NCBI GenBank assembly: GCA_044357485.1
Contig: JBIKPL010000002.1
Span: 1-33,704, forward strand
Length of the DNA stretch: 33,704 nt
Direction of reading: 5' to 3'
From: Cytophagales bacterium
Lineage (GTDB): Bacteria; Bacteroidota; Bacteroidia; Cytophagales; UBA9547
Below are positions 18,912-33,703 of the stretch, one piece after another. The translations under genes were made by a program, and so were the position numbers. Each line of letters begins with the position of its first letter. The stretch's first letter is position 1. The notes below the pieces were generated by a model. That model was not told where the DNA came from. It saw only the letters and a list, made by a program, of their open reading frames with translations, and did not search any database.

Positions 18912-19508
18912 TTATTTTGCTTTTTGGGATACCCCTAATAATTTGTAAATATTAGGTTCATTGTATTCAACCACATCACCAGGTTGCATGCCTGTCATGA
19001 GGAGTTTTCCGATTTGAGTGCGCACAAGTCTTAAGGTTGGAAATCCAACAGAAGCCGTCATTTTACGCACTTGTCTATTTTTGCCTTCAACTAAAACCAA
19101 TTTAATCCAAGAAGTAGGAATATTTTTTCTAAAACGGATAGGAGGATTTCTTTCTGGTAATGTTGGGTCAACAGCTTCTTCTGCTTTTGCAGGAATAGTC
19201 TTGTATTTTACCCCATTCACATTAATTTCTGTACCTGTTTTTAATCTTGCCAAGGCTACGTCATTAACTTGTCCTTCCACTTGGGCCAAATAGGTGCGTT
19301 CGTGTTTTAATAAAGGGTCTAAAAGCCTGTTGTTAAGTCTTTTGTCATTCGTAATTACCAAAAGTCCTTCACTATCGGCATCTAATCTCCCTACTGGGTA
19401 CACGTCTTTAGGGAAGTCAAATAATTCTCCTAAAGTGGCGTGATCACCTTCTTTGGTAAATTGAGATAGCATGCCGAATGGCTTATATATGACGTAGTAT
19501 TTGAACAA
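18912..19508 (-). CDS. RluE/RsuA-family pseudouridine synthase (no S4 domain)
   Basis: 198 aa with YVIYKPFGMLSQF, the catalytic motif GRLDADSEGLLVITND and GKNRQVRKM. Confidence 0.85.
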   Translation of the reverse strand: MFKYYVIYKPFGMLSQFTKEGDHATLGELFDFPKDVYPVGRLDADSEGLLVITNDKRLNNRLLDPLLKHERTYLAQVEGQVNDVALARLKTGTEINVNGVKYKTIPAKAEEAVDPTLPERNPPIRFRKNIPTSWIKLVLVEGKNRQVRKMTASVGFPTLRLVRTQIGKLLMTGMQPGDVVEYNEPNIYKLLGVSQKAK

Positions 19509-19512
19509 AGTT

Positions 19513-20067
19513 TTATGTTTTGAGGGTTGTTTCGAGTGCTTTTTGTTGAGCTAAAGCGCGGTTTAATAAATATTCTTCGATAAAAGTTTCTAAAGGTTTT
19601 AACAACAAAGCCATGATAAGTTTGCCAAACATACTTGTCCAAAGTATGATGGTGCTGTATTGTATAAATGCGGTTTGTTTTGGATTACTAACGATGACTT
19701 GTTTGGCCACAGTTTCAATCACGGGATCAAGGATGCCTTCTGACAACACAAAAAGTACAACCGCTAAACCAAAGGTGATGGTTGCTGCTTTTTTACCTAT
19801 TTTTGCTTTGGTAAGCTCATCAATGGTTTCTTGTAATTCTACATTTTTATCAGCAAGAGCAGCATTGGCTGAGTTAAGTTTGTTTTGTAACTTATCACTT
19901 ACTTTGGTGATTAGTTTAGATTGGTCGAGCATTTCCTCATAGTGATCACAGAGGTTTTTATAGTCTCCTATAACCTCTTCCCTGGTTTTGGTGTCATCGG
20001 CAATAATGCTTCTGCTGTGTTCCAAAACAGTGATTTCGTGTTCAAAAAGTTGTTTTTTATTGCTCAT
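19513..20067 (-). CDS. Coiled-coil plus two-TM membrane protein occupying the SiaD position of a Sia-like operon
   Basis: 184 aa. Residues 1 to about 90 are charged and heptad-rich (YEEMLDQSKLITKVSDKLQNKLNSANAALADKNVELQETIDELTKAK). Two hydrophobic helices follow (ATITFGLAVVLFVLSEGIL and TAFIQYSTIILWTSMFGKLIMALLL). It lies 9 nt after the DUF1987 gene. Confidence 0.55.
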   Translation of the reverse strand: MSNKKQLFEHEITVLEHSRSIIADDTKTREEVIGDYKNLCDHYEEMLDQSKLITKVSDKLQNKLNSANAALADKNVELQETIDELTKAKIGKKAATITFGLAVVLFVLSEGILDPVIETVAKQVIVSNPKQTAFIQYSTIILWTSMFGKLIMALLLKPLETFIEEYLLNRALAQQKALETTLKT

Positions 20068-20076
20068 TTTTAGGGT

Positions 20077-20463
20077 TTAGTCTTCAGGTACTTCTATAAT
20101 CTCGAAAGGAATTTTTACGATATCACTATAGTCTTCCGCTGCTTCTTTCATATCGTCGTCATCTTCTTCGTAGTACCATTCCACTTTCACATCGGCACCT
20201 GATTTTTTAAGCTCTGCAAACTTTTTAAGTACATCTAAAATACATTTAGAAGAGCTGGTATTAAAATATTCAAATTTTAATTGTACGATTACAGGTATGG
20301 CAATAGCATCTGCAATTAATTGTATTAACCATTTGTTGATAGGGTCATAAAACTCTACAGAATTTTCCGGTGTTGATCTACCTTTAAATTCCATAATTCC
20401 AGTATTATGGTCTAGTTTTATGTAAGGGGTATGGTTTTTAGCTGGGAGTTCAAATATTTCCAT
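20077..20463 (-). CDS. DUF1987 / SiaC-like partner-switch protein
   Basis: 128 aa with TPYIKLDHNTGIMEFKGRSTPENSVEFYDPI and FEYFNTSSSK, plus an acidic C-terminus. This matches the DUF1987 pattern. Confidence 0.8.
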   Translation of the reverse strand: MEIFELPAKNHTPYIKLDHNTGIMEFKGRSTPENSVEFYDPINKWLIQLIADAIAIPVIVQLKFEYFNTSSSKCILDVLKKFAELKKSGADVKVEWYYEEDDDDMKEAAEDYSDIVKIPFEIIEVPED

Positions 20464-20488: not shown

Positions 20489-21079
20489 TTATTCTTCTTC
20501 CCCTTTATCAATTTTAGGGATATCAATTTGTAAACTAAAAAATTCAATTTCTTGGTTTACTTTCTGAAATTTATACTTCAGTTTTTGTCCCGACTTTCTC
20601 GCAATATCTATAAAGCCTAGGCCGCCACCGCCTTTTTCAGAAAATTGACCATTGTTAAGCGTACGTTTATAGAGTTCTCTGAGTTCGTCTTTAGAGATAG
20701 AATTTATTTCATCGATACGAAGTTTTAATCCTTCCACTTTTTCTATGGGCACGTAATTTCCTGTTACGACACTGTAGCCAGTCATATCGGTTTCAATAAT
20801 CAATAAAGCGGTTTTACTGTCATAGCCTGTTACTTCAAAATCGGTAGAATCAATGTGATTACACAAATTTTGAAGACATTCGACAAGAACATTGTATACT
20901 TTTTTCCTGGTTTTTCTGTCTTCTTCAATACGGTCTAATCGATCTTCAATAATCTTTAAAACCGAATTAACCAAATCAACAGTAACCTCCCCTTTAAAAG
21001 TAAGCATGATATTGTTTTCATGCATCCTTTCATACAAAGCAAGGTAATCTATCATAGCTGATTGCGACATTTTGTGCAA
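20489..21079 (-). CDS. SiaB-like GHKL serine/threonine protein kinase (anti-sigma-factor-kinase-like)
   Basis: 196 aa with an N-box-like ECLQNLCNH and a G-box-like KGGGGLGFIDIARKS. The size and position between the PP2C and DUF1987 genes match SiaB. Confidence 0.75.
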   Translation of the reverse strand: MHKMSQSAMIDYLALYERMHENNIMLTFKGEVTVDLVNSVLKIIEDRLDRIEEDRKTRKKVYNVLVECLQNLCNHIDSTDFEVTGYDSKTALLIIETDMTGYSVVTGNYVPIEKVEGLKLRIDEINSISKDELRELYKRTLNNGQFSEKGGGGLGFIDIARKSGQKLKYKFQKVNQEIEFFSLQIDIPKIDKGEEE

Positions 21080-21098: not shown

Positions 21099-22913
21099 TT
21101 ATATTTTAAAACCAATTACTAGAATATCATCTAGTTGTGGCTCCGAATCTCCCATCCATTCTGTGATTTCTTTGTCCAATAAGCGTTGTTGTTCGGCCAT
21201 GGGCAAAGTACAGATCTGCAATAATAATTCTTTAAAGCGTTTGTATAAGAATTTTTTACCTTTTGGTCCACCAAATTGGTCGGCATACCCATCGGTAAAG
21301 ATGTAATAGGTGTCGCCTTTCTGAATTTCAAAATCTAAATTGGTGTATTTTAAATCAGGATCTTCAGCATAATGACCTATAGGGAATTTGTTGGCTTTGA
21401 ATTCTTCTAATTCTCCGTTTCTGATACGGTAAAGAGGATTGAAAGCGCCAGCATATTGCAATAAATTTTTATTATAATTAATCCTACACAAGGTGATGTC
21501 CATGCCATCTTTTGAACCTTGGGCATCTTCTTGACCAACCCGCAAGGCTCTACTAACGCCTTCATTTAATTCGTCTAAAATGGCAGCAGAATCTGTTAAT
21601 ATATGATCGGTGACCGATCGGTTAAGAATATTATTACCAACCATCGACATCAATGCGCCTGGTACTCCATGGCCAGTACAATCTACTGCGGCAATAAATA
21701 AGTCTTCACCTTGTTCTTCGAACCAATAAAAATCGCCACTTACAATGTCTTTAGGTTTGTAAAGAAAAAACACATCAGGAATGTATTTTTTTACATAAGA
21801 AGTTGGTGGTAAAATAGATTGTTGAATTCTTAAAGCATATTTGATACTATCGGTAACATCATTGTATAAAATTTGAAGTTTTTCATTTTTTTCCTCAATG
21901 ACATCATTTTGCTTTTCGAGTTCTTCTTTTTGTTTAACAACCTCTTCAGTTCTTTCTTTTACTTTATTTTCGAGCATTTGCTCATTTTCAAATAAGTCGT
22001 CACGCATTTTTAACAATGCATGTCCGAGTGTATCTTGTTCACTTAAGGGTTGGTATTTGCCATCAAAATTCCCACTACCAATTTCTCTAGAAAAATCTGT
22101 GGTACTTTTTAAGCCATTTACCAGCTGATTCAAGGCCCCTGTCATGTCACCAATTTCATCCTGACGATGTTCAATTTCTTTTTCAGGAAGAATTCCTTTC
22201 CCCATTTTCAATAAAATTTGGCGTAAATTTTTGAGTGGGGGCACTATGGTTTTGGTCGTGAAAAAGGCAATGAGAAAGCCCATGATAATGAGCAGTATAC
22301 CCGCATTGATTACATAAGCCTGTAATAAGTCAAATGAACTGATCATCTGCACACTTTTATCGTGGGCCGAATCTCTGTGAATTTCATTAATGACAGACAA
22401 TTCATCCAAAATTTCACGGGTAAGTAAATCTACATTTCCTCCATCTAATTGAGGGCGAATGAAAAATATAATATTGGGGTCTTCGTATGTCGTAAAATCT
22501 TTTAATTGCACCATTATACCCCGGTACATTTGAAATAGACTATCTATTTTTACAAAAAGCTTGTTGACTTTTTCTTTTTCAACTGGATGCCAATAGACAG
22601 ATAAAGCTTCAATTTCTCTTCTTTTGTTTGGGTAATCCTGACTAATGAGTTTTCTTAAAATAAACTTGTCTTGGTTATCTGGGCCACTTTGAACAAACAC
22701 CCAGTTACTGATGTATTTTTGAGACCTTACCAATAGTAAATCTAAATCATCCAACGCTTCTGCCGATGGATTATAGACTTTGGTTACCTCATTGTTTAAG
22801 GTTCTGCTATTGTGTAGCGTAAGATAAGTAAGAACAAAATTTAGTATGGTAAAAAAGATAAATAACCCAAACCCTAACCAGATTTTTCTCCCAATGTTGA
22901 ACCTAAATTTCAT
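21099..22913 (-). CDS. Membrane sensor phosphatase: TM, periplasmic helical domain, TM, HAMP, coiled coil, SpoIIE/PP2C (SiaA-like)
   Basis: 604 aa. TM1 spans about residues 10-32 and TM2 about 200-222. The HAMP region reads PPLKNLRQILLKMGKG...DEIGDMTGALNQLV, and the coiled coil is NEQMLENKVKERTEEVVKQKEELEKQ. PP2C motifs are VSGDFYWF, DCTGHGVPGALMS, DGMDITL and FTDGYADQ. Confidence 0.85.
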   Translation of the reverse strand: MKFRFNIGRKIWLGFGLFIFFTILNFVLTYLTLHNSRTLNNEVTKVYNPSAEALDDLDLLLVRSQKYISNWVFVQSGPDNQDKFILRKLISQDYPNKRREIEALSVYWHPVEKEKVNKLFVKIDSLFQMYRGIMVQLKDFTTYEDPNIIFFIRPQLDGGNVDLLTREILDELSVINEIHRDSAHDKSVQMISSFDLLQAYVINAGILLIIMGFLIAFFTTKTIVPPLKNLRQILLKMGKGILPEKEIEHRQDEIGDMTGALNQLVNGLKSTTDFSREIGSGNFDGKYQPLSEQDTLGHALLKMRDDLFENEQMLENKVKERTEEVVKQKEELEKQNDVIEEKNEKLQILYNDVTDSIKYALRIQQSILPPTSYVKKYIPDVFFLYKPKDIVSGDFYWFEEQGEDLFIAAVDCTGHGVPGALMSMVGNNILNRSVTDHILTDSAAILDELNEGVSRALRVGQEDAQGSKDGMDITLCRINYNKNLLQYAGAFNPLYRIRNGELEEFKANKFPIGHYAEDPDLKYTNLDFEIQKGDTYYIFTDGYADQFGGPKGKKFLYKRFKELLLQICTLPMAEQQRLLDKEITEWMGDSEPQLDDILVIGFKI

Positions 22914-24094
22914 TTCTTAAGATTTTCAAGTTCGGTTTTAAATTGATTTGATTTGTCTAAATCATTCAATCCAAAATAAATACCTGAAAGCATTTCAAGC
23001 ACATTCTTGTTTTTAGGCTCTAATTCGTATGCTTTTAAAGCAAATGGTAGTGCTTTCTTAAACAAGTCAACACACTCATCTTGTATTTGCGCCAAGGTGG
23101 TAAAGTCGATATTATAATTTTGTTTATTGATGATATCTACTGCTTGGTTATAATAGATAATACCCAAACTATAATTTGCTGTGGTATTGTTTGCATTAAT
23201 GGTTAGGATTTGCAAATATGATTTTTCCGCATTATGCAAATGTGATCTTTTATTGATACTGTCATTCACCGCCAGTTTTTCATATACTTGAGATAGCAAT
23301 AAATGATAATCTAAATTTGTAGGTTCAGTTCTTATGGCTTGATGTAGCGATAAAATTAATAAGGTAATATTGTTTGTTTGGCTATAATAGCGTACCCTTA
23401 GTTGTTCTATTTCTTTGTTATCGTTGTATTTTTCTGTCGCCAATAAAACCACATTATCTGCTTGTTTGATATTGTTGGTGGCTAAATAATCATCTGAAAG
23501 GATAACATACAACAACGGGTCGTTGTAGGCATATTGCATCGCTAAATCAAGGTAATGAATGGCCTCTGGTATGTCACCATTTCTATGGGCAGCATAACCC
23601 GCGTAATAAATACTTGCGGTATCTATGGCATTGCTGATTAAATGATAATTGCTTAAATAAAATTTAAAGTAGTTAAACGAATTTTTGTAGTCTTCTTTGT
23701 TTAATGTATTAACCGCATCAGTTTTAATGGTTGAAAGCAGGTACTTAGTGATGTTTTTGCAATCATTGGTATACTTGTTTTCTTTGTCAAGACCAATACA
23801 TTTGTTGATGTAATTCAGGGCATTTTGACGGTAAGTCATGCCTCCAGTTGCGGCATCTTTTCTTTTGTATAATTCTTTATTAATAAAGCCATTGTAATAC
23901 CAAGCCTTTGGATCGTTGCTTACGTCTTCTGCAGTCAATGCCAATTCAATGGCTTGTTTTGCCTTTTCAAAATCACTCTCTTTTAATGCTTGCTCAGCCT
24001 CTGCAAGTTTAGTTTGTTGTGCATACGCACCACCAACTACACCTATGCAAGTGAATAAAGTCAGAAGAACAATATGTACAAACTTATTTATCAT
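22910..24094 (-). CDS. Secreted TPR-repeat protein
   Basis: 394 aa with a signal peptide (LLTLFTCIGVVGGAYAQ) and repeated A..Y/N..G..Y TPR-like helices. ATGA overlaps occur at both ends (24091-24094 and 22910-22913). Confidence 0.7.
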   Translation of the reverse strand: MINKFVHIVLLTLFTCIGVVGGAYAQQTKLAEAEQALKESDFEKAKQAIELALTAEDVSNDPKAWYYNGFINKELYKRKDAATGGMTYRQNALNYINKCIGLDKENKYTNDCKNITKYLLSTIKTDAVNTLNKEDYKNSFNYFKFYLSNYHLISNAIDTASIYYAGYAAHRNGDIPEAIHYLDLAMQYAYNDPLLYVILSDDYLATNNIKQADNVVLLATEKYNDNKEIEQLRVRYYSQTNNITLLILSLHQAIRTEPTNLDYHLLLSQVYEKLAVNDSINKRSHLHNAEKSYLQILTINANNTTANYSLGIIYYNQAVDIINKQNYNIDFTTLAQIQDECVDLFKKALPFALKAYELEPKNKNVLEMLSGIYFGLNDLDKSNQFKTELENLKK

Positions 24095-24621
24095 TTTTCG
24101 TCTAATATGGCCATGTTTACTAAACTAGAGCTCACAGTTAAGCCAGATCGTTCAGCATTTGATTTACTTAATTCAAATTTTTGTTTATTTTCTTGGTAAA
24201 CAAAGTTGATGACAGCCCCTTTTTTAATTAAACCTGCATTTTCTCCTATCACCAAGGTATTGTTTTTAGCAATTTTTTGTGCTGCCGCTGTTATAGAAGT
24301 GCTTTTTTCGGCCGTAATAAACAGCAATTGGCATTTTCCAATTTCCTCTACGTTGTTATATACTTTTACAATAAAGCTTCTTGTTCCTATTTTGCTCAAA
24401 GCGGCCATTTTCTCTAGTTCTTTGATCAGGTTAGGATTATTATTTCCCAATACCCCTATCACAAAGTCTCCTTGTTTTTGATTTTCGGGCCACTCTATGT
24501 ATTTGGTAAAATTATAGATAAAGATGGCTTTGATTTTAGAGTTTACATCCTGCGCACATACGTCTAGCAAGCTTACGTAAAGTAAGGCGGTTGCAATGCA
24601 TATGTAGCGAAGGTAGAACAT
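24091..24621 (-). CDS. YfiR / DUF4154-family periplasmic protein
   Basis: 176 aa with a signal peptide, then KIKAIFIYNFTKYIEWP...VIGVLG...LLFI, the characteristic DUF4154 (YfiR) opening motif. Confidence 0.75.
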   Translation of the reverse strand: MFYLRYICIATALLYVSLLDVCAQDVNSKIKAIFIYNFTKYIEWPENQKQGDFVIGVLGNNNPNLIKELEKMAALSKIGTRSFIVKVYNNVEEIGKCQLLFITAEKSTSITAAAQKIAKNNTLVIGENAGLIKKGAVINFVYQENKQKFELSKSNAERSGLTVSSSLVNMAILDEK

Positions 24622-24696: not shown

Positions 24697-27189
24697 TTAT
24701 TCGTCTAAATCAATCACATTATTTTCATCGACTTGTACTTTTTGCTGTTTTTTCCATTCTTCGTCAAGATTTCTTTTCTTAAATAAATTTTTTATTTCAG
24801 TCGATTCAACCTTTAATCTTTCCTTTATTTTTTCCTTAACTGCCTTAGTATCATAGCTTATTTTAATGTTTGGTGGGGTTCCTTGTATTTTTAAAAACAA
24901 GGTAGTACCACCATCTTTTTCGTCTTGCAAGGCATTTTCCTCTTCACTTGTATTTTTCTTTTTAAAATTCTTCAACGACACTTTTAATTTGTAATTCATG
25001 GCATTGTCAAAAGTATGTGTGCCCGAAATGCCAATGGTATTTAAGTTTGATTTTATCACCATTTCTGGAATGGTGACCAATTTGTTTTCAATATGGATGC
25101 TGTTTTTAATTTCTTTAAATTTAATATTCCTTAACTCCACGGCATCGACAAATTTCGACAGTTTTTGCATGGGTTCAAAATTGAGCAGTTGTCCGTTTAC
25201 CAAACTTACATTTACATCAGCTTTCACTGATTGTGGGTTAATTTGAAGGTTTTTATTAAACGCCATTTCTAAATCTATGGAAGTAGTTAGCCGTCCTCTT
25301 AAATTTTGATGGGTAATGAAATTTTGATCAAAATTTTCGAACATATAAAAAACACTGTCTACTATAATGTTGTTGAAGGCTGTTTGTGCTTGTAACTGCA
25401 TTTTTTCTACATTATTGGTATTGAGATTGGCATTGAGGCTAATGCTGCCGCCAGCTATGGTAAAGGAGGTGTTTCTAGTGGATACAATTTTGTCGTTCAG
25501 TTTTAGTTCTCCTTGAATGTTTCCGGTATTAAATTTCCTGAATTTAAGTTTTCCTATATTACAATTTAAATCAAGCGTTAAGCGGGGAGAAATAGCAAAT
25601 TTATAATTTGAAGTATCTTTGTCTGATTGTTTGCTATTGGCTAATAATTCATCTAGATCAACCAATACAGATTTGCAATGCGCATCAATGACAATTTTTT
25701 CTTCTTTAAAAAACAAAAATGGAAATACATTCTTAAACAAGCCATCCAATGCAAAATCAGTATTCCCAATTTTACCGCTAAATTGATTGATAGACACATC
25801 GTTTTTATTGAATAAGAAATTAGCTTTAAAATCACTAAACACATAGGGTTTAGCGCTTACTTTAAAATCAAGTGCATGCACGGTAATTTCTCCATTGGTA
25901 TGGATGTTTTTTTTGCCTTCCGTTGTTTTTAAATCTGCTAGTTTACCATTAAAAGCAAGGTTTATACTCATTTCACCTTTGGCATATTCAAGCCCTTTGA
26001 TAGGGTAAAAGGCAATGATAGAAGCGATATTTAAATCAGCATTGAGGTCAAAACTGATGTCTGGGTTACTAAAGTTTGTAATTTTAAACTCCCCACTGAT
26101 TTTACGATTGTCTAAATAACTTTCTAAATCCGAAATTTCGAGACTGTTTTGTAGCGCCGTACTATTAAATGTACCTTTAAACGAAGTTTTGGTAAGTTCT
26201 TTTTTAATGGATGGATGGTAAAAAGAGGCATGCTGACAACCAAATAATACCTCTATGTCGGGCTGATTACCGTTAGCAATTTCTCCTGCAACAGTTCCTT
26301 TAAAATACACATCTCCTTTGCTTTTGTACACACTTATTTTGTCGTAAATGTCTTTGGATAGCAAGGAGAGGATGGTTTGGATATTGGTATTGATGCCTTC
26401 TAGCGAAAGGTCAATAGAGGGTTTATTGCCAGCTTTAAGGGTGCCACTCACCAAAAATTCAGATTTTTCGACCAACACACTTGTTGGTTTAATTGTTAAT
26501 AATTTCTTTGCTGTCGAAAATACCAAAGCACTTTTTAAATCAATATTTTTGTTTTTAAAGTATATTTTCTCTGCTACATTTATTTTATGCACGGTTAAAT
26601 TTCCATCTACAGCAATGGCTATTTCTTTGGGCGAATATTTTAAGTTAGCACTTGTGAAGTGTGCATAAAGTTGAACCGTATTGTTTTTTTGTTCATTCGC
26701 ATATTGTATTTCGACCTCTTCGAGGATAATTTTTTTAAGATCAAAATTCACTTTCTTTTTACTTTTGCTGGCATCAGGTTTTATGATTTCATAATTGGGT
26801 ATGCCTTCTTTATTTAGCCTAATATGCGCATTTCCTTTTGAAATATATACTTTGTGCAGTTTATATTGCCCGTTAATCATGTCCCAAATGTCAAAGGTGA
26901 AATATATTCTATGGGCTTTTAGTAAATAATTTTTGCTGTTTTTATACGATTCGTTGATGACGATATCGTCAAAACGAATGGCTACTTGTGGGAATTTTTC
27001 AAAGGCGGAGAAAGATATTTTTTTTACTGCTACTTTGGTTTGTAGGTGTTTATTTGCTTCCGATACAAAATGTTGAATAATTTTATCTTGGTATAGATAC
27101 GTCAATCCTACTGCTGTAGTCGCAAATAGTACTACAACAATAAATAGCCCAAAAAGCACTCGCTTGATGTATTTAAAGAGTTTCTCCAT
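24697..27189 (-). CDS. AsmA-family envelope protein
   Basis: 830 aa with a single N-terminal TM anchor (VLFGLFIVVVLFATTAVGLTYLY), a long beta-rich repetitive body and a lysine-rich C-terminus. The layout is typical of AsmA-like proteins. Confidence 0.65.
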   Translation of the reverse strand: MEKLFKYIKRVLFGLFIVVVLFATTAVGLTYLYQDKIIQHFVSEANKHLQTKVAVKKISFSAFEKFPQVAIRFDDIVINESYKNSKNYLLKAHRIYFTFDIWDMINGQYKLHKVYISKGNAHIRLNKEGIPNYEIIKPDASKSKKKVNFDLKKIILEEVEIQYANEQKNNTVQLYAHFTSANLKYSPKEIAIAVDGNLTVHKINVAEKIYFKNKNIDLKSALVFSTAKKLLTIKPTSVLVEKSEFLVSGTLKAGNKPSIDLSLEGINTNIQTILSLLSKDIYDKISVYKSKGDVYFKGTVAGEIANGNQPDIEVLFGCQHASFYHPSIKKELTKTSFKGTFNSTALQNSLEISDLESYLDNRKISGEFKITNFSNPDISFDLNADLNIASIIAFYPIKGLEYAKGEMSINLAFNGKLADLKTTEGKKNIHTNGEITVHALDFKVSAKPYVFSDFKANFLFNKNDVSINQFSGKIGNTDFALDGLFKNVFPFLFFKEEKIVIDAHCKSVLVDLDELLANSKQSDKDTSNYKFAISPRLTLDLNCNIGKLKFRKFNTGNIQGELKLNDKIVSTRNTSFTIAGGSISLNANLNTNNVEKMQLQAQTAFNNIIVDSVFYMFENFDQNFITHQNLRGRLTTSIDLEMAFNKNLQINPQSVKADVNVSLVNGQLLNFEPMQKLSKFVDAVELRNIKFKEIKNSIHIENKLVTIPEMVIKSNLNTIGISGTHTFDNAMNYKLKVSLKNFKKKNTSEEENALQDEKDGGTTLFLKIQGTPPNIKISYDTKAVKEKIKERLKVESTEIKNLFKKRNLDEEWKKQQKVQVDENNVIDLDE

Positions 27190-27506: not shown

Positions 27507-28322
27507 ATGAATACCACCGAATCTTCCTCCTCTTATAAAAATTTGGAGCAAATGAGTACTGTTGATTTACTACATAATATTAATAAAGAGGATCAATCTG
27601 TGCCTAAAGCTGTGGAGAAGGTAATTCCTGCCATTGAAAAAGTAGTGGATGAAGTGGCTAAAAGACTTGCCAATGGAGGCAGGTTATTTTATATCGGCGC
27701 AGGTACCAGTGGCAGGTTAGGGGTAGTCGATGCCTCTGAATGTCCTCCTACTTTTGGGGTACCTCACGATTTGGTAATTGGCATTATCGCTGGTGGAGAT
27801 ACTGCCATTCGAAAAGCAGTTGAGTTTGCTGAAGATGATATTGCCCAAGCGTGGGTAGATTTAGGCGCTAAAAATATTAGTCCAAAAGACGCCCTTATCG
27901 GCATTGCGGCTTCAGGTCGTACCCCTTATGTGTTGGGTGGTATTAATACAGCCAAAGCCAATGGCATTTATACGGCTTGTATTTGTTGTAATGCGGGATC
28001 TGTAATTGGTCAAGCGGTGGATGATGCCATCGAAGTAGTGGTTGGTCCCGAGTTTGTAACTGGTAGTACGCGCATGAAATCAGGCACAGCACAAAAATTA
28101 GTGCTCAATATGATTTCTACGGCCGTAATGATTAAGTTAGGGAAAGTAAAAGGCAACAAAATGGTCGACATGCAATTGAGCAACCTCAAATTGGTTGATC
28201 GTGCCAAACGTATGGTGATGGATGAAATACCGGTTACTTACGAAGAAGCTTCAGAGTTGCTCGAAAAAAATGGAAGCGTAAGAAATGCGGTAGATGCTTG
28301 GCGAAATGATGCAAATAAGTGA
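27507..28322 (+). CDS. murQ: N-acetylmuramic acid 6-phosphate etherase
   Basis: 271-aa SIS-domain protein with [62 protein letters not shown] and GNKMVDMQ. Confidence 0.92.
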
Positions 28323-28387
28323 TGAGTGTTGAGTGTTGAGTGTTGAGTAAATTTTACTCAACACTCAACACTTACAACTTAACACTT
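28323..28387 (+). repeat. Inverted heptamer array forming a long hairpin immediately after the murQ stop
   Basis: TGAGTGT x3, TGAGTAA, ATTTTAC, TCAACAC x2, TTACAAC, TTAACAC. Positions 28333-28350 pair perfectly with 28354-28371 (18 bp, 3-nt loop), and the stem can extend to 28330-28374. Confidence 0.85.
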
Positions 28388-28549
28388 ATTTAATTGTTAC
28401 TAAAGTATTAGTATTTCTTCATTTTTTACTAATTTTGACAGTTACTTTAAGCGCTAAAATAGTATTGATACTGTAATCAAGAAAATAAATACTGTCTTCA
28501 TTTGATAAGTTTGTTGCTTTGATTACCCTAAAACTTATACCCCAAGTAC

Positions 28550-31500
28550 ATGAAAAAAGTTTTACAAAAAATTAACCACAGTTCCCTAATTGCCTTTTTA
28601 GTTATTGCTATTTCTTTTTGTTCAATGGATGTATTTGGGCAATGTAGCGCTGTTCCTGTAAAAGAAGCAGTAAGAAATGGTGATTTTGAAGCCGGTTATA
28701 TTGCTAACGATTTTAAATCTGATAATATTTATGCAGGACCTTATATTAAATCAAAATTAGATGTTAACCAATGCCATTATGCTACTGGTGACAAATATTA
28801 TATAAGTGATTTTCAAGAAGTTTATAAATGTGAAGGTGTTACAAAACAAGGAACATCTTTTAGCCCTGATTTAGGTACAGTTGGAAAAGGAGGATCTTCA
28901 GACAAAATTTTATACGTGGATCCCAAAGCGGCTATAGATCCATTATTTTGGGAACAAACGGTTTCAGTTACGCCTGGTCAGTTGTATTACTTCTCGTTTT
29001 GGAACACATTAATTTTAGGTCCTGCCATTAATTATGATGTTTATATTAATGGTGTAAAAATTACATTAAATCCTGGTAATGCTGTTTCTTTTAGCGCTAC
29101 CGTATCTAGGAAAGTATTTGATGCAAATGGTAAAGTTGTTCAATATGTTTCATTAGATCCAAATGGAGATCCATATGTTGATAGTAAAGGAGATCCAATT
29201 ATGTTAGATAAAGTTACCACAACAGCTGTTCCTATAACATGGACGCAATTATACGGTACTTGGAATTCAGGAACAAATACTTCCGTTAAAGTTCAAATTA
29301 AAGGACAAGGTTCCATTCCTCAATCAGGTGCTGATATTGCTTTAGATGATATTTCTTTTAAAAATGATTGTTCAGGAATTGTTGCTCAAAATCCAACGCT
29401 TCCAGATTTAGGCGATGATGTTAATTTTTGTTCCACAAATGGTACATTAATTTTAGATTCAAAATTGGCTGTTGCACCGAATTTAAAATATTATTGGTAT
29501 AAAACTAATACTTCAACAGGCACAGAAACACAGATTGCTGCTGCTACTGCCAATAAATTAAATATAGTAAATGCTGATTTACTTACGCCCGACACTTATG
29601 TGAGGGTTTGTGTTGAAGATAATTTAAAATCTTGTTCCTCGGCTTCCGATCAGATCAAAATCTCCAAATTTTTAACTGCTACTTTAGATAATGAAGTATT
29701 ATGTTCACCACCTATTGCCACATTAAAGCCTGTTGTTGAGCCTTATGATCCTTTGGTTTCTTATACAAAAACTTATACATGGAGTAATACGGCAGGTGAA
29801 GTAGTGAGCACAACGGCATCGCAATCTGCATCAAAGGCTGGTAATTATTCTGTGACGGTATCTAATCCAAATGTTCCTGGTTGTGCTGCTACTGCCACTT
29901 CAACGGTTACTTCAAAATTACCAACTGCCCCTACGAATTTAACCTATTGCGAGGATGGTGGTGTGGCTACGAATTTAACCGTAGGTGATGGTAAAAAGTA
30001 CAATTGGTATAAAGATGCTGCTAAAACAGCCTTACTTACTGTAACCAATAATGGTACCGTTACAACTTCTTGGGTGCCTCTTGTTGGAACAACTGGTGAC
30101 CAAACCTTATATATATCTAGTAATGAAACAAGTCCAATAGCAGGCAGTATAGGGCCGGCATCTCCAGGAGCAAGCTATCCTGCAGCAGGAAGTGGTGATG
30201 TAATTACCTTAACAGTAACGCAAGCAGTAGAATTAACTTCCTTTGTGGTTTCTGGTGCTACTTGGGTTGCTGGTTGCTCTGGTGCTGGTTCCACAAATTC
30301 ATCACTATTTACCATTAAAAATGGTGCAACAGTCATCGCTTCTAAATCTGTAACGATAAACTGCGGTAGCGCTACTACCGTTAATTTTGGTGTGTCTTTA
30401 CAACCAGGTACCTATACCCTTAATGCCACCGCTGGTGCATTTTATTTTGGTGCAATGTCAGGTACTTTGTCAAACACTAGCCTAACGATATCAGGAACGA
30501 ATACTGTTTTTGCTAATATTATTACTGCAAGTGCTTCGGCATGTGATCCAATGCCTGTAATTGTTAAAGCGGTGTCTTGTTGCGTTAAACCTGATATCAC
30601 CACACAACCAGCATCAGTTTCGAAATGTGAGGGTGCTTCAACTTCCTTTACGGTTGCAGCGACAGGCGCTACCTTGACTTACCAATGGCAAATTGAATCT
30701 GCTACACCGGGTACGTTTACTGATTTGACGAATACGGGTGTTTATACCAATGTTACAACGGCCACGATGAACATTTCGAATGTTACGGGTTTAACAGGTA
30801 AAAAATACCAGGTAATTGTTAAAACAAACGGTACTTGCCCTGCTACTTCAAGTGCAGCGACTTTAACGGTTAACCCAACCCCAGCTACACCAACCATTAC
30901 CTCTAGTTTAACACCGAATACGTCTTTTGCGTATTGTGCAGGTACGAATATGGCCTTAACAGCAGCAACGACTACACCGGGTACGGCCACATGGTCTTGG
31001 GTAACCAAACAAGGAACGTCTACTACGGCTACCAATACTGCCAACAAAACAAGCATTACCTCTTCAGAGGCAGGTTTATATGAAGTAACGGCAACGATTA
31101 ACAGTTGTGTAAGTGCAAAAGGTTCAGCAACGGTAGCGGTAACGGCATTGCCAGTTGCAACGGTAGCAGCCACACAATCGATATGCTCAGGAGTGCCGAT
31201 GGCAGCGACTACTGTTTCTTTAAATCCTACTACGGCTAAGTTTGATTGGAATACGACGACTACGGCTCCTACAGGTGCTGCTACAGGAGCGAGCCCAACG
31301 TCAGGTACGGCAGTAGCCCATCTTACGGATTTGGCACAAAGCACTTTACAGGTTCCTAATGGTACAGGTTCTGGTACCTATACGTTTACGATTACGCCAA
31401 AAGACGGCGCTTGTACAGGTACAGCCGTAACACATGTGGTGACCGTGAAAGCCAAACCAGCCAAACCAGTACCTACCAACGATGGCCCCTATTGCGAGAC

Positions 31501-33703
31501 TAAAAATATTACTTTAAAAGCTAATGTTGCCCCTGCTTTAGCCGCAAGCTGGAACTGGACTTTTGGCAGTTCTTTAACTTCTATTAGTGCACTACAAGAC
31601 CCAACACCATTTGCCGCTACTTCAGCCAGCAGTGGTTATTACCATGTATCTGTTACCAATACCAATGGTTGTGTAAGTGATACAGGCACCACGAAAGTAG
31701 TGGTGAATACGGTACCAGGCTTGCCATCGGTAGCTATCTTTAATTTTTGTGAAGATACGCTTACTGCGCCAAGCTTATCGGCTACGGTAACGCCATCTTC
31801 AGGATATACCTTAACTTGGTATGGCCAAAATGCTACAGGTGGAACCGGGAGTACAACCGCTTCCGTAGTTGATGTGACGACAGCAGGTCAGTTTACGTAT
31901 TATGTGACCCAAAAATCGGCTACTTGTGAAAGTGCACGTGCACCTATTACCGTAAACATTAAAGCCAGACCAGTTTTTACAGCCACAGGTTCTCCTGCAT
32001 GCAAAGGCACATTGGGCACCATTAATTTTAACACCACAGGTGGCGGAGGTACTTATACGTATTCTTGGACAGCAACTGCCAATCCTGCCATATCATCGGG
32101 AGTGGTTAATTCTACCGGCTACCAATCGGTAACAGCAATTACCCAAACGCTAGACTTGGTAGACCAATCTAATACGGCAGTGCTTACCAAACAAGTGTAT
32201 ACGGTTATGGTACACGATGCAAATGGTTGTACGGCAAAAGATACGGCTAATATCGTGGTAAACCCTTGTCCTTATAACCCAGATTTTAGTTTATCAAAAG
32301 ATACGGCTTGTCTAAAAGCCAATGCCGCTACAGTAACGATTACCCCCAAAGCAATAGGCGCCACAAGCTGGACTTGGGATTTTGGACTAGCCTCAGATTA
32401 TACGACTACACAAGCTTTAACAGACGATGGCACCAATGGTACAGCGATGAATGCGAATAGTATTCCGGCACCAACACCATTTGATGTGGTCTATAAAACG
32501 GCAGGTATTAAGAAAATTACGCTCTCCGTAAAAGGCCCTGGTTCGATTACACCTATTACCAAAGACGTGTTTTTTACCGTTGGTGCAGTGCCAGTGGTAA
32601 CGGTAACAGGCAATAGCCCTATTTGTAGCAATACTAAAACGGCGATTTCCCTTAGCTCCGATATTACAGGTGCTACTTTTGCTTGGGTAAGCCCTATCGC
32701 TACCCCAACGGCAGGAGATGTTACAGGAGCATCTGCAAGTACAGGTACCCCAACAACGATTGCACAAACCTTACAAAATACGACATCAGGCTCAATACCT
32801 GCTAACCTTACCTATAAAGTAATTGCTACCAGCCCTTCCCCTAACTTTTGTAAAAGTGCTGGCACAGATGTAGTGGTAAAAGTGAACCCAATTCCAGTAT
32901 TGAGCGCTACCAATGGTGGCCCTTTATGTGATAAAAAAACAGCACAAGATGCCATAACAGCAATTGCGACGACCGTGTCAGGAAGTGCCATTACATGGAC
33001 TTCAACTTCAAGTATTGCCACAGGCGCAGCAGGAGCAGGAACGGTAGGGGCTTCAGGTATCATCAACGAAGCATTACATACCACCAATGTGCAAGGCAAA
33101 GTGAGCTATACCTTGATTGCTACTTCTACCGATAATTGTAAAGACACTTTAGGCCCTATTGATGTGCTTGTAAATGCTACCCCAAAAGTAACACCAACCG
33201 ATGATAGCATTGGGGTGTGTAGCGGTACAGCGATTTCAGGATTGACCTTGGCTTCTAGCGTTAGCGGTGCCACTATCAACTGGACAGCTGCGTTGACAAG
33301 TGGTACGGTTACCGGATTTTCTCCTGGCCTACAAACAAGCGCAAGCATTACCGATAATTTAGCAAGCTCAGGTGTGGTTACCTATACCATTAACGCGACC
33401 AATACCAATGGTAGTTGTACCGGTCCTGATACTACCGTGGTAGTGAGCGTAAGCCCTCGTCCAGTACTTACGCTTGGAAGTGATGTTACGATTTGTAGCA
33501 GCACAGGCCCAGGCATTGCCATTAGCAGTGATATTTTAACCACCTTAAGCTGGACGGTGAAATCGTCTACCGGAGGTGTTACCCAAATTGCAGGTGCAAG
33601 CAGCAGTGTGCCACTAGCAGGAGGCACATCGGCCAATACCAACGCTACAACCATCAATACGAAATTGGTCACCAAAGACAAAGCCGTAGCCGATGGAGGT
33701 ACC
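28550..33703 (+). CDS. Giant cell-surface repeat protein (signal peptide, beta-sandwich N-domain, many Ig-like / PKD-like modules); C-terminus lies beyond the window
   Basis: The frame is open from the ATG at 28550 to the window end (1718 codons). It is absent from the track because it has no stop. Signal peptide: MKKVLQKINHSSLIAFLVIAISFCSMDVFGQ. It contains CHU_C-associated-type Ig modules (C..G....Y.WY), one classical PKD module (WTWDFG...YKTAGIKKITLSV) and PKD-like modules (ICS......ISLSS...GATF.W). Confidence 0.85.
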   Translation, partial: MKKVLQKINHSSLIAFLVIAISFCSMDVFGQCSAVPVKEAVRNGDFEAGYIANDFKSDNIYAGPYIKSKLDVNQCHYATGDKYYISDFQEVYKCEGVTKQGTSFSPDLGTVGKGGSSDKILYVDPKAAIDPLFWEQTVSVTPGQLYYFSFWNTLILGPAINYDVYINGVKITLNPGNAVSFSATVSRKVFDANGKVVQYVSLDPNGDPYVDSKGDPIMLDKVTTTAVPITWTQLYGTWNSGTNTSVKVQIKGQGSIPQSGADIALDDISFKNDCSGIVAQNPTLPDLGDDVNFCSTNGTLILDSKLAVAPNLKYYWYKTNTSTGTETQIAAATANKLNIVNADLLTPDTYVRVCVEDNLKSCSSASDQIKISKFLTATLDNEVLCSPPIATLKPVVEPYDPLVSYTKTYTWSNTAGEVVSTTASQSASKAGNYSVTVSNPNVPGCAATATSTVTSKLPTAPTNLTYCEDGGVATNLTVGDGKKYNWYKDAAKTALLTVTNNGTVTTSWVPLVGTTGDQTLYISSNETSPIAGSIGPASPGASYPAAGSGDVITLTVTQAVELTSFVVSGATWVAGCSGAGSTNSSLFTIKNGATVIASKSVTINCGSATTVNFGVSLQPGTYTLNATAGAFYFGAMSGTLSNTSLTISGTNTVFANIITASASACDPMPVIVKAVSCCVKPDITTQPASVSKCEGASTSFTVAATGATLTYQWQIESATPGTFTDLTNTGVYTNVTTATMNISNVTGLTGKKYQVIVKTNGTCPATSSAATLTVNPTPATPTITSSLTPNTSFAYCAGTNMALTAATTTPGTATWSWVTKQGTSTTATNTANKTSITSSEAGLYEVTATINSCVSAKGSATVAVTALPVATVAATQSICSGVPMAATTVSLNPTTAKFDWNTTTTAPTGAATGASPTSGTAVAHLTDLAQSTLQVPNGTGSGTYTFTITPKDGACTGTAVTHVVTVKAKPAKPVPTNDGPYCETKNITLKANVAPALAASWNWTFGSSLTSISALQDPTPFAATSASSGYYHVSVTNTNGCVSDTGTTKVVVNTVPGLPSVAIFNFCEDTLTAPSLSATVTPSSGYTLTWYGQNATGGTGSTTASVVDVTTAGQFTYYVTQKSATCESARAPITVNIKARPVFTATGSPACKGTLGTINFNTTGGGGTYTYSWTATANPAISSGVVNSTGYQSVTAITQTLDLVDQSNTAVLTKQVYTVMVHDANGCTAKDTANIVVNPCPYNPDFSLSKDTACLKANAATVTITPKAIGATSWTWDFGLASDYTTTQALTDDGTNGTAMNANSIPAPTPFDVVYKTAGIKKITLSVKGPGSITPITKDVFFTVGAVPVVTVTGNSPICSNTKTAISLSSDITGATFAWVSPIATPTAGDVTGASASTGTPTTIAQTLQNTTSGSIPANLTYKVIATSPSPNFCKSAGTDVVVKVNPIPVLSATNGGPLCDKKTAQDAITAIATTVSGSAITWTSTSSIATGAAGAGTVGASGIINEALHTTNVQGKVSYTLIATSTDNCKDTLGPIDVLVNATPKVTPTDDSIGVCSGTAISGLTLASSVSGATINWTAALTSGTVTGFSPGLQTSASITDNLASSGVVTYTINATNTNGSCTGPDTTVVVSVSPRPVLTLGSDVTICSSTGPGIAISSDILTTLSWTVKSSTGGVTQIAGASSSVPLAGGTSANTNATTINTKLVTKDKAVADGGT

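Follow-up and report, generated by a model that had tools for sequence, protein, structure and literature searches.

The stretch of DNA analyzed here, referred to as the window, comprises 33,704 nucleotides of a contig from a Cytophagales bacterium (JBIKPL010000002.1, assembly GCA_044357485.1). Within it, an open reading frame (ORF) at 19513..20067 on the minus strand, starting with ATG, encodes a 184-amino-acid (aa) protein that we call X and that reads as a heptad-phased coiled coil between a putative SiaC-docking stalk and a membrane hairpin. X follows three genes on the same strand that together supply the parts of a SiaABC-type switch: a phosphatase with PP2C and HAMP domains, a SiaB-family kinase and a SiaC protein with its threonine. 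The phosphatase (21099..22913, minus) is predicted to have two transmembrane (TM) helices, a HAMP domain (PF00672) and a PP2C/SpoIIE domain (PF07228, 1.6e-16). It scores 239.9 bits against the SiaA model NF038263, under the equivalog cutoff of 700, and by its profile matches is SiaA-like and no orthologue by the NCBI rule. The kinase (DUF6272; 20489..21079, minus) exceeds the cutoff of the SiaB-family model NF038262, SiaB_fam_kinase (155.4 bits, cutoff 85), and matches PF19788 at 1e-38, and does not reach the SiaB equivalog NF038264 (89 vs. 225 bits). The SiaC-family phosphoprotein (20077..20463, minus; 128 aa; PF09345, 133 bits) likewise stays under the SiaC equivalog NF038265 (90.9 vs. 150 bits). 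It matches Pseudomonas aeruginosa SiaC (6KKO/7E6G) at 1e-16 in phmmer, with residues Y66-F67-N68-T69-S70-S71 aligned to Y65-L66-N67-T68-S69-S70 (YFNTSS vs. YLNTSS); the predicted phospho-acceptor is T69, codon 20257-20259. This phospho-loop is at least 90% conserved among the SiaC partners of X. A scan of the operon for promoters and terminators returned nothing above shuffled expectation.

Sequence conservation and relatives of gene X

A 9-nt gap (20068-20076) separates the stop of the SiaC gene from the start of X, and the two genes lie in the same frame. X is a real gene under strong purifying selection, with ratios of nonsynonymous to synonymous substitution rates (dN/dS) of 0.040 and 0.038 against the orthologues at two other loci, L012 and L013 (dS 0.42 and 2.4, respectively; L-numbers denote loci, and P-numbers clusters of proteins at 50% identity). 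A word-indexed search returned 68 homologues of 36–97% identity, all about 160–200 aa long. An exhaustive HMMER search of 1.84 billion representatives of 50% identity clusters returned 236 representatives at E≤1e-3, 103 of them at E≤1e-10. In the source records these homologues are annotated as 'hypothetical protein' or carry arbitrary names. X itself matches no family in Pfam, NCBIfam or PADLOC (PADLOC noise only, E 0.008), and a Pfam scan of 144 relatives gave scattered coiled-coil noise, with no GGDEF and no catalytic domain. Searches of Protein Data Bank sequences with the family profile and with the stalk peptide found nothing relevant, and Foldseek found no match to the predicted X structure in the same database better than E 5; a c-subunit-like hairpin match at E 8.5 was not significant and was not used.

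A preliminary description of this DNA, made from its letters and ORFs, had placed the start of the frame 9 nt after a DUF1987 gene, and had seen some 90 heptad-patterned residues, then two hydrophobic helices and an amphipathic tail, and no catalytic motif. Each of these features was borne out: the upstream gene is the PF09345/SiaC gene just described, none of the three family databases matched X, 15 of the 26 large hydrophobic residues in positions 1–95 fall on a/d of the best register where about seven are expected, and the two hydrophobic helices lie at aa 95–117 and ~137–157 with a basic tail behind them.

Putative docking region, coiled coil and membrane hairpin

In the N-terminal part of X, conservation is highest in I53-T54-K55-V56-S57-D58-K59-L60-Q61-N62-K63-L64, where T54 is found in 139, S57 in 128, D58 in 141, L60 in 139 and Q61 in 130 of the 144 members. 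The putative core docking motif covers aa 53–65, ITKVSDKLQNKLN (19873..19911, minus), with the S57 codon at 19897-19899. In the published structure of the P. aeruginosa complex, T68 of SiaC is inserted between two parallel stalk helices of the diguanylate cyclase SiaD and forms hydrogen bonds to S82 and Q86, with additional contacts from V78, R80, I81, D83, R84 and Y85 and a second motif at S50/Q54 (PMC8457831). When the X profile was aligned to this crystallised SiaD, X 32–73 fell on SiaD 57–98, and in the best alignment S57-D58-K59-L60-Q61 of X stood against S82-D83-R84-Y85-Q86, that is, S57 at S82 and Q61 at Q86. S57 also belongs to the 7-residue series of L64, L71, L78 and L85, which places this small polar side chain at the seam of the coiled coil, inferred to be the position expected of a site that admits the SiaC threonine.

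To obtain other proteins encoded next to SiaC, proteobacterial siaC replicons were located by tblastn with P. aeruginosa SiaC. Every gene directly after siaC on the replicons examined has an N-terminal pattern, 'LF..E...L ... [YF]E.L[LM].[QE].[KR].[LI]....SD[KR]', that matches X residues 7–61. These genes encode a histidine kinase followed by a GGDEF cyclase in Azospirillum oryzae, and GGDEF cyclases in Methylobacterium, Burkholderia and Variovorax. In hhalign, the profile of 144 X members aligned with five such N-termini (four cyclases and one histidine kinase) over X 4–66 with 95.6% probability and E 1.3e-8. This region (19870..20058, minus), predicted by AlphaFold2 as helix 1 (aa 3–23), a turn and the beginning of the long helix, is shown by these profile alignments to be homologous to the SiaC-receiving N-terminus of SiaD-type cyclases. 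The preliminary description had proposed that the N-terminal coiled coil could serve as a stalk for SiaC docking, separated from any GGDEF domain; this gains support from the hhalign result and the S82/Q86 register, and also from the YFNTSS loop of SiaC, the SiaC–X fusions and the 49/53 synteny described below.

The same N-terminus also occurs in front of other outputs. Three Cytophagales/Flammeovirgaceae genes (L085 7019-7952, L090 6998-8035 and L091 7016-8035) encode an X-type docking N-terminus (FITKISDRLQNKLN) fused to HisKA/HATPase. None of the three has a SiaC gene beside it; the metagenome-assembled genome (MAG) that contains L091 also contains a SiaB-SiaC-X locus, L077. On the A. oryzae plasmid (NZ_CP054616; L010 5387-7098), an equivalog-grade siaC precedes the HisKA/HATPase kinase and the GGDEF cyclase, both with the docking N-terminus KIAKISDR[LM]QT, and from these motifs the A. 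oryzae SiaC may control two different outputs.

Beyond the docking region, X continues as a coiled-coil lead-in (aa 67–94; 19786..19869, minus), whose residues N75, L78, T81, D83, L85, T86 and A94 are conserved across all architectures in which this part of the protein occurs. It leads into TM helix 1 (aa 95–117; 19717..19785, minus), where the 19-residue Kyte-Doolittle mean is ~2.0 and L105, F106, E110, D/E114 and P115 stand out. A predicted outside loop of net negative charge follows (aa 118–136; 19660..19716, minus); in the alignment it measures 29 aa in the window X against a median of 12 aa, so that this clade exceeds most relatives by ~17 aa. A second hydrophobic helix (aa 137–158; 19594..19659, minus; Kyte-Doolittle 1.5–2.1) carries K149, A153, K157 and P158; the mean is 1.5–1.7 over aa ~137–157 of the window X and 2.1 over aa 142–156 for the family. 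The last part is an amphipathic, predicted cytoplasmic tail (aa 159–184; 19516..19593, minus) with E160, E164 and then basic residues. Over the 144 relatives, net charges of +3.6 on the N-terminal flank of helix 1, -1.8 in the loop and +2.1 in the tail fit a hairpin with both termini inside. The hairpin residues are near-invariant, with F106 in 141, E110 in 139, K149 in 142 and P158 in 136 of the 144.

The spacing of these elements was followed in 160 non-identical sequences that matched both search patterns. From D58 to the T81-I-D83-E-L85-T86 block, the distance in each of the 159 genuine members is 18, 25, 32, 39, 46, 53 or 60 residues (4+7n), so that every change in linker length is a whole number of heptads; the one remaining sequence is a TPR protein that matched a pattern spuriously. 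D83 to L105 is 22 residues in 153/154. Whole-heptad linkers and a fixed distance to TM helix 1 indicate that docking site, lead-in and TM helix 1 lie on one uninterrupted, phase-locked coiled coil. The structure prediction of the 184-aa protein alone, suggested in the preliminary description, agrees with this: using the 144-sequence alignment, AlphaFold2 gave three helices, 3–23, 29–126 and 132–183, the second running without a break, with a predicted local distance difference test score (pLDDT) of 89.7 and a predicted template modeling score (pTM) of 0.56. The third helix includes the amphipathic tail.

Synteny, fusions and reuse of the C-terminal module

When one genome was scanned for each GTDB species, 80 loci came up, mostly from Cytophagales MAGs, and also from Bacteroidales, Saprospiraceae, Microscillaceae, Bernardetiaceae, Flexithrix dorotheae DSM 6795 and a Kapaibacterium. 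ORF calling followed by jackhmmer with the window proteins left 53 loci with a stand-alone X. The SiaC gene lies immediately upstream and co-oriented in 49/53, with gaps of -8 to +147 nt that are mostly below 40, while the flanking genes vary among lineages. Single lookups of three diverged homologues found each directly after SpoIIE, DUF6272 and SiaC genes, again with unrelated flanks. X is thus kept in syntenic loci and, with a dN/dS of 0.04, does not show the lack of conservation that would have counted against the preliminary description. Other recurrent neighbors are limited to SiaB and the PP2C phosphatase, plus TPR and DUF4154 genes in the clade of the window. Four of the MAG records (L013, L015, L039 and L051) are titled Bifidobacterium breve, Bifidobacteriaceae, Hyphobacterium or Thalassovita; their loci are clearly of the Bacteroidota SiaABC-X type, and the records are likely mislabeled or mis-binned.

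Seven clusters are natural fusions in which an N-terminal SiaC domain and X form a single protein (P0104, P0156, P0205, P0167, P0191, P0160 and P0212). P0104 recurs on five contigs that stem from separate runs, immediately preceded by a DUF6272 gene. In several of the fusions a linker takes the place of X helix 1 and the ...ISDRLQ(N/K)KLN... motif is retained. AlphaFold2 predicted P0104 (pLDDT 91.9, pTM 0.50) as a SiaC domain joined by a low-confidence linker to the three helices seen in X, the SiaC part superposing on SiaC of 7E6G/6KKO with TM-scores of 0.86–0.90 and a root-mean-square deviation of 1.4–2.3 Å. The remaining junctions of the switch are also found fused, PP2C-SiaB in L057 and L058 (619–625 aa) and SiaB-SiaC in L005, L035, L040 and L042, so that every adjacent pair of switch genes is a single gene in some lineage. 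Three further proteins of 504–520 aa (P0221, P0222 and P0223) have the triple-domain order SiaB-SiaB-SiaC. In P0160, a 299-aa SiaC–X fusion, the YFNTSS loop is lost (LQEMDEAG instead) and the docking motif of the X part is kept; judged by this pattern, P0160 may be a constitutive, phosphorylation-independent variant.

The C-terminal part of X also occurs without SiaC. In profile searches, X residues ~62–180 matched the C-terminal ends of longer proteins, and residues ~67–180 were found behind TPR repeats (P0129, P0137 and P0142), REC (P0147 and P0178), REC-PAS or REC-PAS-PAS (P0155, P0157, P0185, P0190 and P0192), PAS (P0208) and GAF (P0158). These forms lack the SD+LQ docking motif and retain N75, L78, T81, D83, L85, A94, L105, F106, E110, P115, K149, A153, K157, P158, E160 and E164. 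By this distribution, residues ~67–180 are a separate, highly conserved module of an undescribed family. Genome matches to the fused forms came from Saprospiraceae, Chitinophagales, Flavobacteriaceae and Gemmatimonadaceae as well, and no neighbor gene was conserved among their 24 loci. The P0178 operon (L177/L178 555-3982) encodes REC, REC-module, H-NOX (HNOB) and HNOBA-HisKA-HATPase proteins, and from these domains looks like a nitric oxide (NO)-sensing two-component system with a response regulator that ends in the hairpin module. A 4.51-Mb Cytophagales chromosome with a SiaB-SiaC-X locus (L029) also encodes a REC-PAS-module protein (P0185), so several inputs can feed this type of module in one cell. 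That REC, PAS, GAF and TPR regions all stand in front of the same module points to a general inside-to-membrane signaling output, and we infer that in Bacteroidota it holds the positions that GGDEF/EAL enzymes hold in Proteobacteria.

Two further genes open the cluster in the clade of the window. The first encodes a YfiR-like periplasmic protein (DUF4154; 24091..24621, minus; PF13689, E 1e-34), which scores 114.6 bits against the NCBIfam TOL_0243 YfiR-like model (cutoff 125), and is found upstream in 16/53 X loci; the second encodes a secreted TPR protein (22910..24094, minus; TPR_19 match and an N-terminal signal-like sequence), found in 17/53. Both (22910-24621, minus) are co-conserved with the SiaA-like phosphatase in these 16–17 of the 53 loci and, by analogy with YfiR-YfiN, may be a periplasmic input that controls the phosphatase. 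On the other side, the gene for an RluE-like pseudouridine synthase (18912-19513, minus) begins 4 nt past the X stop and may be co-transcribed with X; it is found in only ~7 related loci. Just upstream of the cluster, an 830-aa protein (24697-27189, minus) has weak matches only, to a GspN-like C-terminus (E 3.5e-5, below cutoff) and to BT_3535-like proteins. The other genes of the window are chromosomal (MprF-like, PanC, DUF4270, FeoB, GT4 glycosyltransferase, kynureninase, YfhO and the RluE-like gene), and the window contains no tRNA and no Rfam match. Directly after a SIS-domain gene lies a hairpin (28313-28391) with 39-nt arms, 87% complementary, and AGTGTTG heptamer repeats, probably a terminator or REP-like element (repetitive extragenic palindrome); its sub-threshold Rfam matches to miRNA precursors are surely spurious. 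An apparently ORF-free region at 28.3–30.7 kb was rejected as such, because it belongs to a long open frame (28532-33703, plus) that runs past the window end. This frame has at least 1,724 codons, a signal-peptide-like start (MKKVLQKINHSSLIAFLVIAISFCSMDVFGQ) and a GC content of 0.42–0.49, above the rest of the window, and probably encodes a large secreted or surface protein.

A proposed membrane output for the SiaABC-type switch

Taken together, these comparisons make it likely that, in a partner switch of the SiaABC type, SiaC directly targets X, a non-enzymatic protein embedded in the membrane, and they are compatible with a switch that gates a membrane function. In the mechanism we propose, the SiaA-like phosphatase would sense envelope cues, possibly via the YfiR-like and TPR proteins, and dephosphorylate SiaC. 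Unphosphorylated SiaC would clamp a parallel X dimer at V56-S57-D58-K59-L60-Q61, as in the SiaD2:SiaC4 complex; since each X chain has one docking motif, the predicted assembly is X2:SiaC2. Phosphorylation of T69 by SiaB would release SiaC. The changed packing of the coiled coil would pass along the continuous helix, aa 29–126, into the membrane, where a four-helix bundle of two hairpins would repack around the near-invariant E110, K149, K157-P158, E160 and E164, and this membrane event would be the output. Its most likely form would be either control of a membrane partner encoded at an unlinked site or regulated oligomerisation into an ion-conducting bundle.

Several observations weigh against this reading. 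Four of the 53 stand-alone X genes have no adjacent SiaC, and clustering of the neighbors of 53 X and 24 fused-module loci revealed no conserved gene for a membrane partner. Metagenome contigs were also scanned with the subfamily SiaC alignment, and the best 80 loci, at 47–62% identity, were kept (L095–L174). Nine were too short to assess. In 70 of the 71 others SiaB-SiaC ends the gene group, and the genes after this terminal pair are unrelated or convergent; X is downstream only in the closest, L095. SiaB-SiaC is likewise a terminal pair on a Bernardetia plasmid. The possibility that a homologue of X always follows DUF1987, named for checking in the preliminary description, is therefore rejected, with X present in 1/71. 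As X is nearly always beside SiaC and SiaC is usually without X, X appears to be one clade-restricted output and not the general one, and SiaC proteins with no adjacent X probably act on targets encoded elsewhere. Other points concern the sequence and structure comparisons. The alignment to the single P. aeruginosa SiaD sequence is weak (probability 36%, E 3.7e-4), coiled-coil composition is able to inflate profile scores, and X has a single SD+xQ motif, against two in SiaD. As a membrane span, the second hydrophobic helix is borderline in some members, and the pTM of the predictions is only 0.50–0.56, a high pLDDT being cheap for long helices.

Because X has no enzymatic domain, it could be a mere membrane tether or sink for SiaC, with the hairpin as a passive anchor. 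X would hold unphosphorylated SiaC at the membrane, for example near the membrane-bound SiaA phosphatase, or titrate it away from its real target, such as a kinase with the same docking region. Cytophagales do encode such kinases, one of which (L091) shares its MAG with a SiaB-SiaC-X locus (L077), and the Azospirillum SiaC appears to have two targets with the docking motif. However, the hairpin is among the best-conserved parts of the protein (F106, E110, K149 and P158, in 136–142 of the 144 relatives), which a passive anchor would not need, and its position is fixed relative to the coiled coil, with linker insertions and deletions in whole heptads. The same module is also the sole C-terminal domain of REC, PAS, GAF and TPR sensors that are otherwise without an output. 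The near-invariant membrane residues and the role of the module as the only output of many sensor proteins make a tether or sink unlikely.

A cytoplasmic docking region joined to a two-helix membrane element with buried charges also resembles small TM effectors, and the variety of sensor domains that drive the module would suit a regulated pore-forming or toxic effector like the two-TM effectors of cyclic oligonucleotide-based antiphage signaling systems (CBASS) and of the pyrimidine cyclase system for antiphage resistance (Pycsar), collapsing the membrane potential and leading to dormancy or death. We regard this as quite improbable: no PADLOC model matched, the locus lies among housekeeping genes and in no defense island, X is vertically conserved across Cytophagales and other Bacteroidota at a dN/dS of 0.04, and the inputs upstream (YfiR-like, TPR and HAMP) are envelope-sensing, not phage-sensing. 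Even less can be said for the view that X is a coiled-coil membrane protein with no relation to the switch, such as a tail-anchored one like ElaB/YqjD, and stands beside siaC incidentally. One JGI homologue record is named 'ElaB/YqjD/DUF883 family', others bearing random names, and weak coiled-coil matches to many Pfam families occur. Yet neither X nor its 144 relatives match DUF883, X has two hydrophobic helices in place of a single C-terminal TM helix, and the SiaD-type docking motif is in register. Adjacency in 49/53 loci across lineages with differing flanks, and seven clusters of SiaC–X fusions, exclude a chance neighbor for practical purposes.

If X is a membrane-embedded target of SiaC, as we favor, the consequences reach beyond one operon. 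The SiaC-docking helix would be a portable element found before cyclases, histidine kinases and a membrane hairpin, and, as the docking motif points to the targets, SiaC-type switches become readable from sequence. The hairpin module, unannotated so far, spans 236 clusters; many REC, PAS, GAF and TPR proteins of Bacteroidota and Gemmatimonadota have it as their sole output. Signaling by cyclic di-GMP (c-di-GMP) is sparse in Bacteroidota and Gemmatimonadota, and the action of the module would explain how phyla with little c-di-GMP turn envelope, NO and phosphorelay signals into a membrane response. Given this sparseness and the parallels with SiaABC and with H-NOX/histidine kinase operons, we raise as a tentative and on balance doubtful idea that the ~110-residue C-terminal module is a new class of signaling output, which brings cytoplasmic signals (from the SiaC switch, REC phosphorylation, PAS/GAF ligand sensing or TPR) directly into the membrane, either as an ion-conducting bundle that is gated or by regulating some membrane machine, and which stands in for the c-di-GMP enzymes of the SiaABCD and H-NOX/HnoK pathways in Bacteroidota, Gemmatimonadota and relatives. 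The comparisons single out specific positions that could be mutated: S57, Q61, E110, K149 and P158 of X, together with T69 of SiaC.

To our knowledge, SiaABCD is known only as a Pseudomonas route to c-di-GMP and biofilm formation. What is new here is a SiaABC-type switch with a putative non-enzymatic membrane output; the switch logic is that of SiaABCD. Among the papers searched, DUF1987 was mentioned in one alone, which suggests that DUF1987 proteins modulate adjacent proteins (PMC8457831), and non-cyclase outputs of SiaC were not described. SiaD (PA0169 of P. aeruginosa; 7E6G) resembles X in being encoded directly after siaC, co-oriented, and in having an N-terminal helical region whose parallel coiled-coil stalk carries the [IV]-S-D-[KR]-x-Q motif for SiaC binding; the SiaC that it binds also shares its fold and phospho-threonine loop with the SiaC of the window. 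Unlike SiaD, which is soluble, X has its stalk continued by a membrane hairpin; it has no GGDEF domain and would make no c-di-GMP. Against the SiaD model NF038266, X scores 13.5 bits (E 0.033; cutoff 290), with aa 34–74 aligned to the stalk part only. With no GGDEF domain and a score under the cutoff, X is not a member of the SiaD family, and its homology is confined to the SiaC-receiving N-terminus. The kinase and cyclase of the A. oryzae plasmid and the kinases of Cytophagales share this docking N-terminus with X, in front of an interchangeable output; theirs is enzymatic (HisKA/HATPase or GGDEF), whereas that of X is a ~110-aa membrane module to which no activity is assigned.

The same logic as in SiaABC-X is seen in the cyclase-controlling STAS switches HsbA-HsbD of P. 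aeruginosa and BgrV-BgrR of Sinorhizobium, where a kinase and a phosphatase set the phosphorylation of a small STAS-like protein that controls the output (PMC8457831). Here the antagonist belongs to the DUF1987/SiaC fold family, and the output would be non-enzymatic and in the membrane. H-NOX/HnoK two-component systems deliver their signal to c-di-GMP enzymes in Proteobacteria, and a likeness to them lies in the REC protein that ends in the X module, whose operon also encodes H-NOX and an HNOBA histidine kinase. This protein lacks the docking motif and has no SiaC partner; its input would be phosphotransfer. The two-TM effectors of CBASS and Pycsar, as well as MgrB and SafA, are short membrane elements that a cytoplasmic signal controls and that work through oligomerisation or by binding other membrane proteins; X shows no sequence or profile similarity to any of these and differs from them in its housekeeping context and its long, conserved coiled coil. 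Transmission of the S-helix or HAMP type comes close to what we propose for X, with a continuous dimeric coiled coil between input and output and insertions and deletions of whole heptads. In contrast to such sensors, the signal in X would travel from the cytoplasm to the membrane, and its output would be a TM hairpin instead of a catalytic domain.

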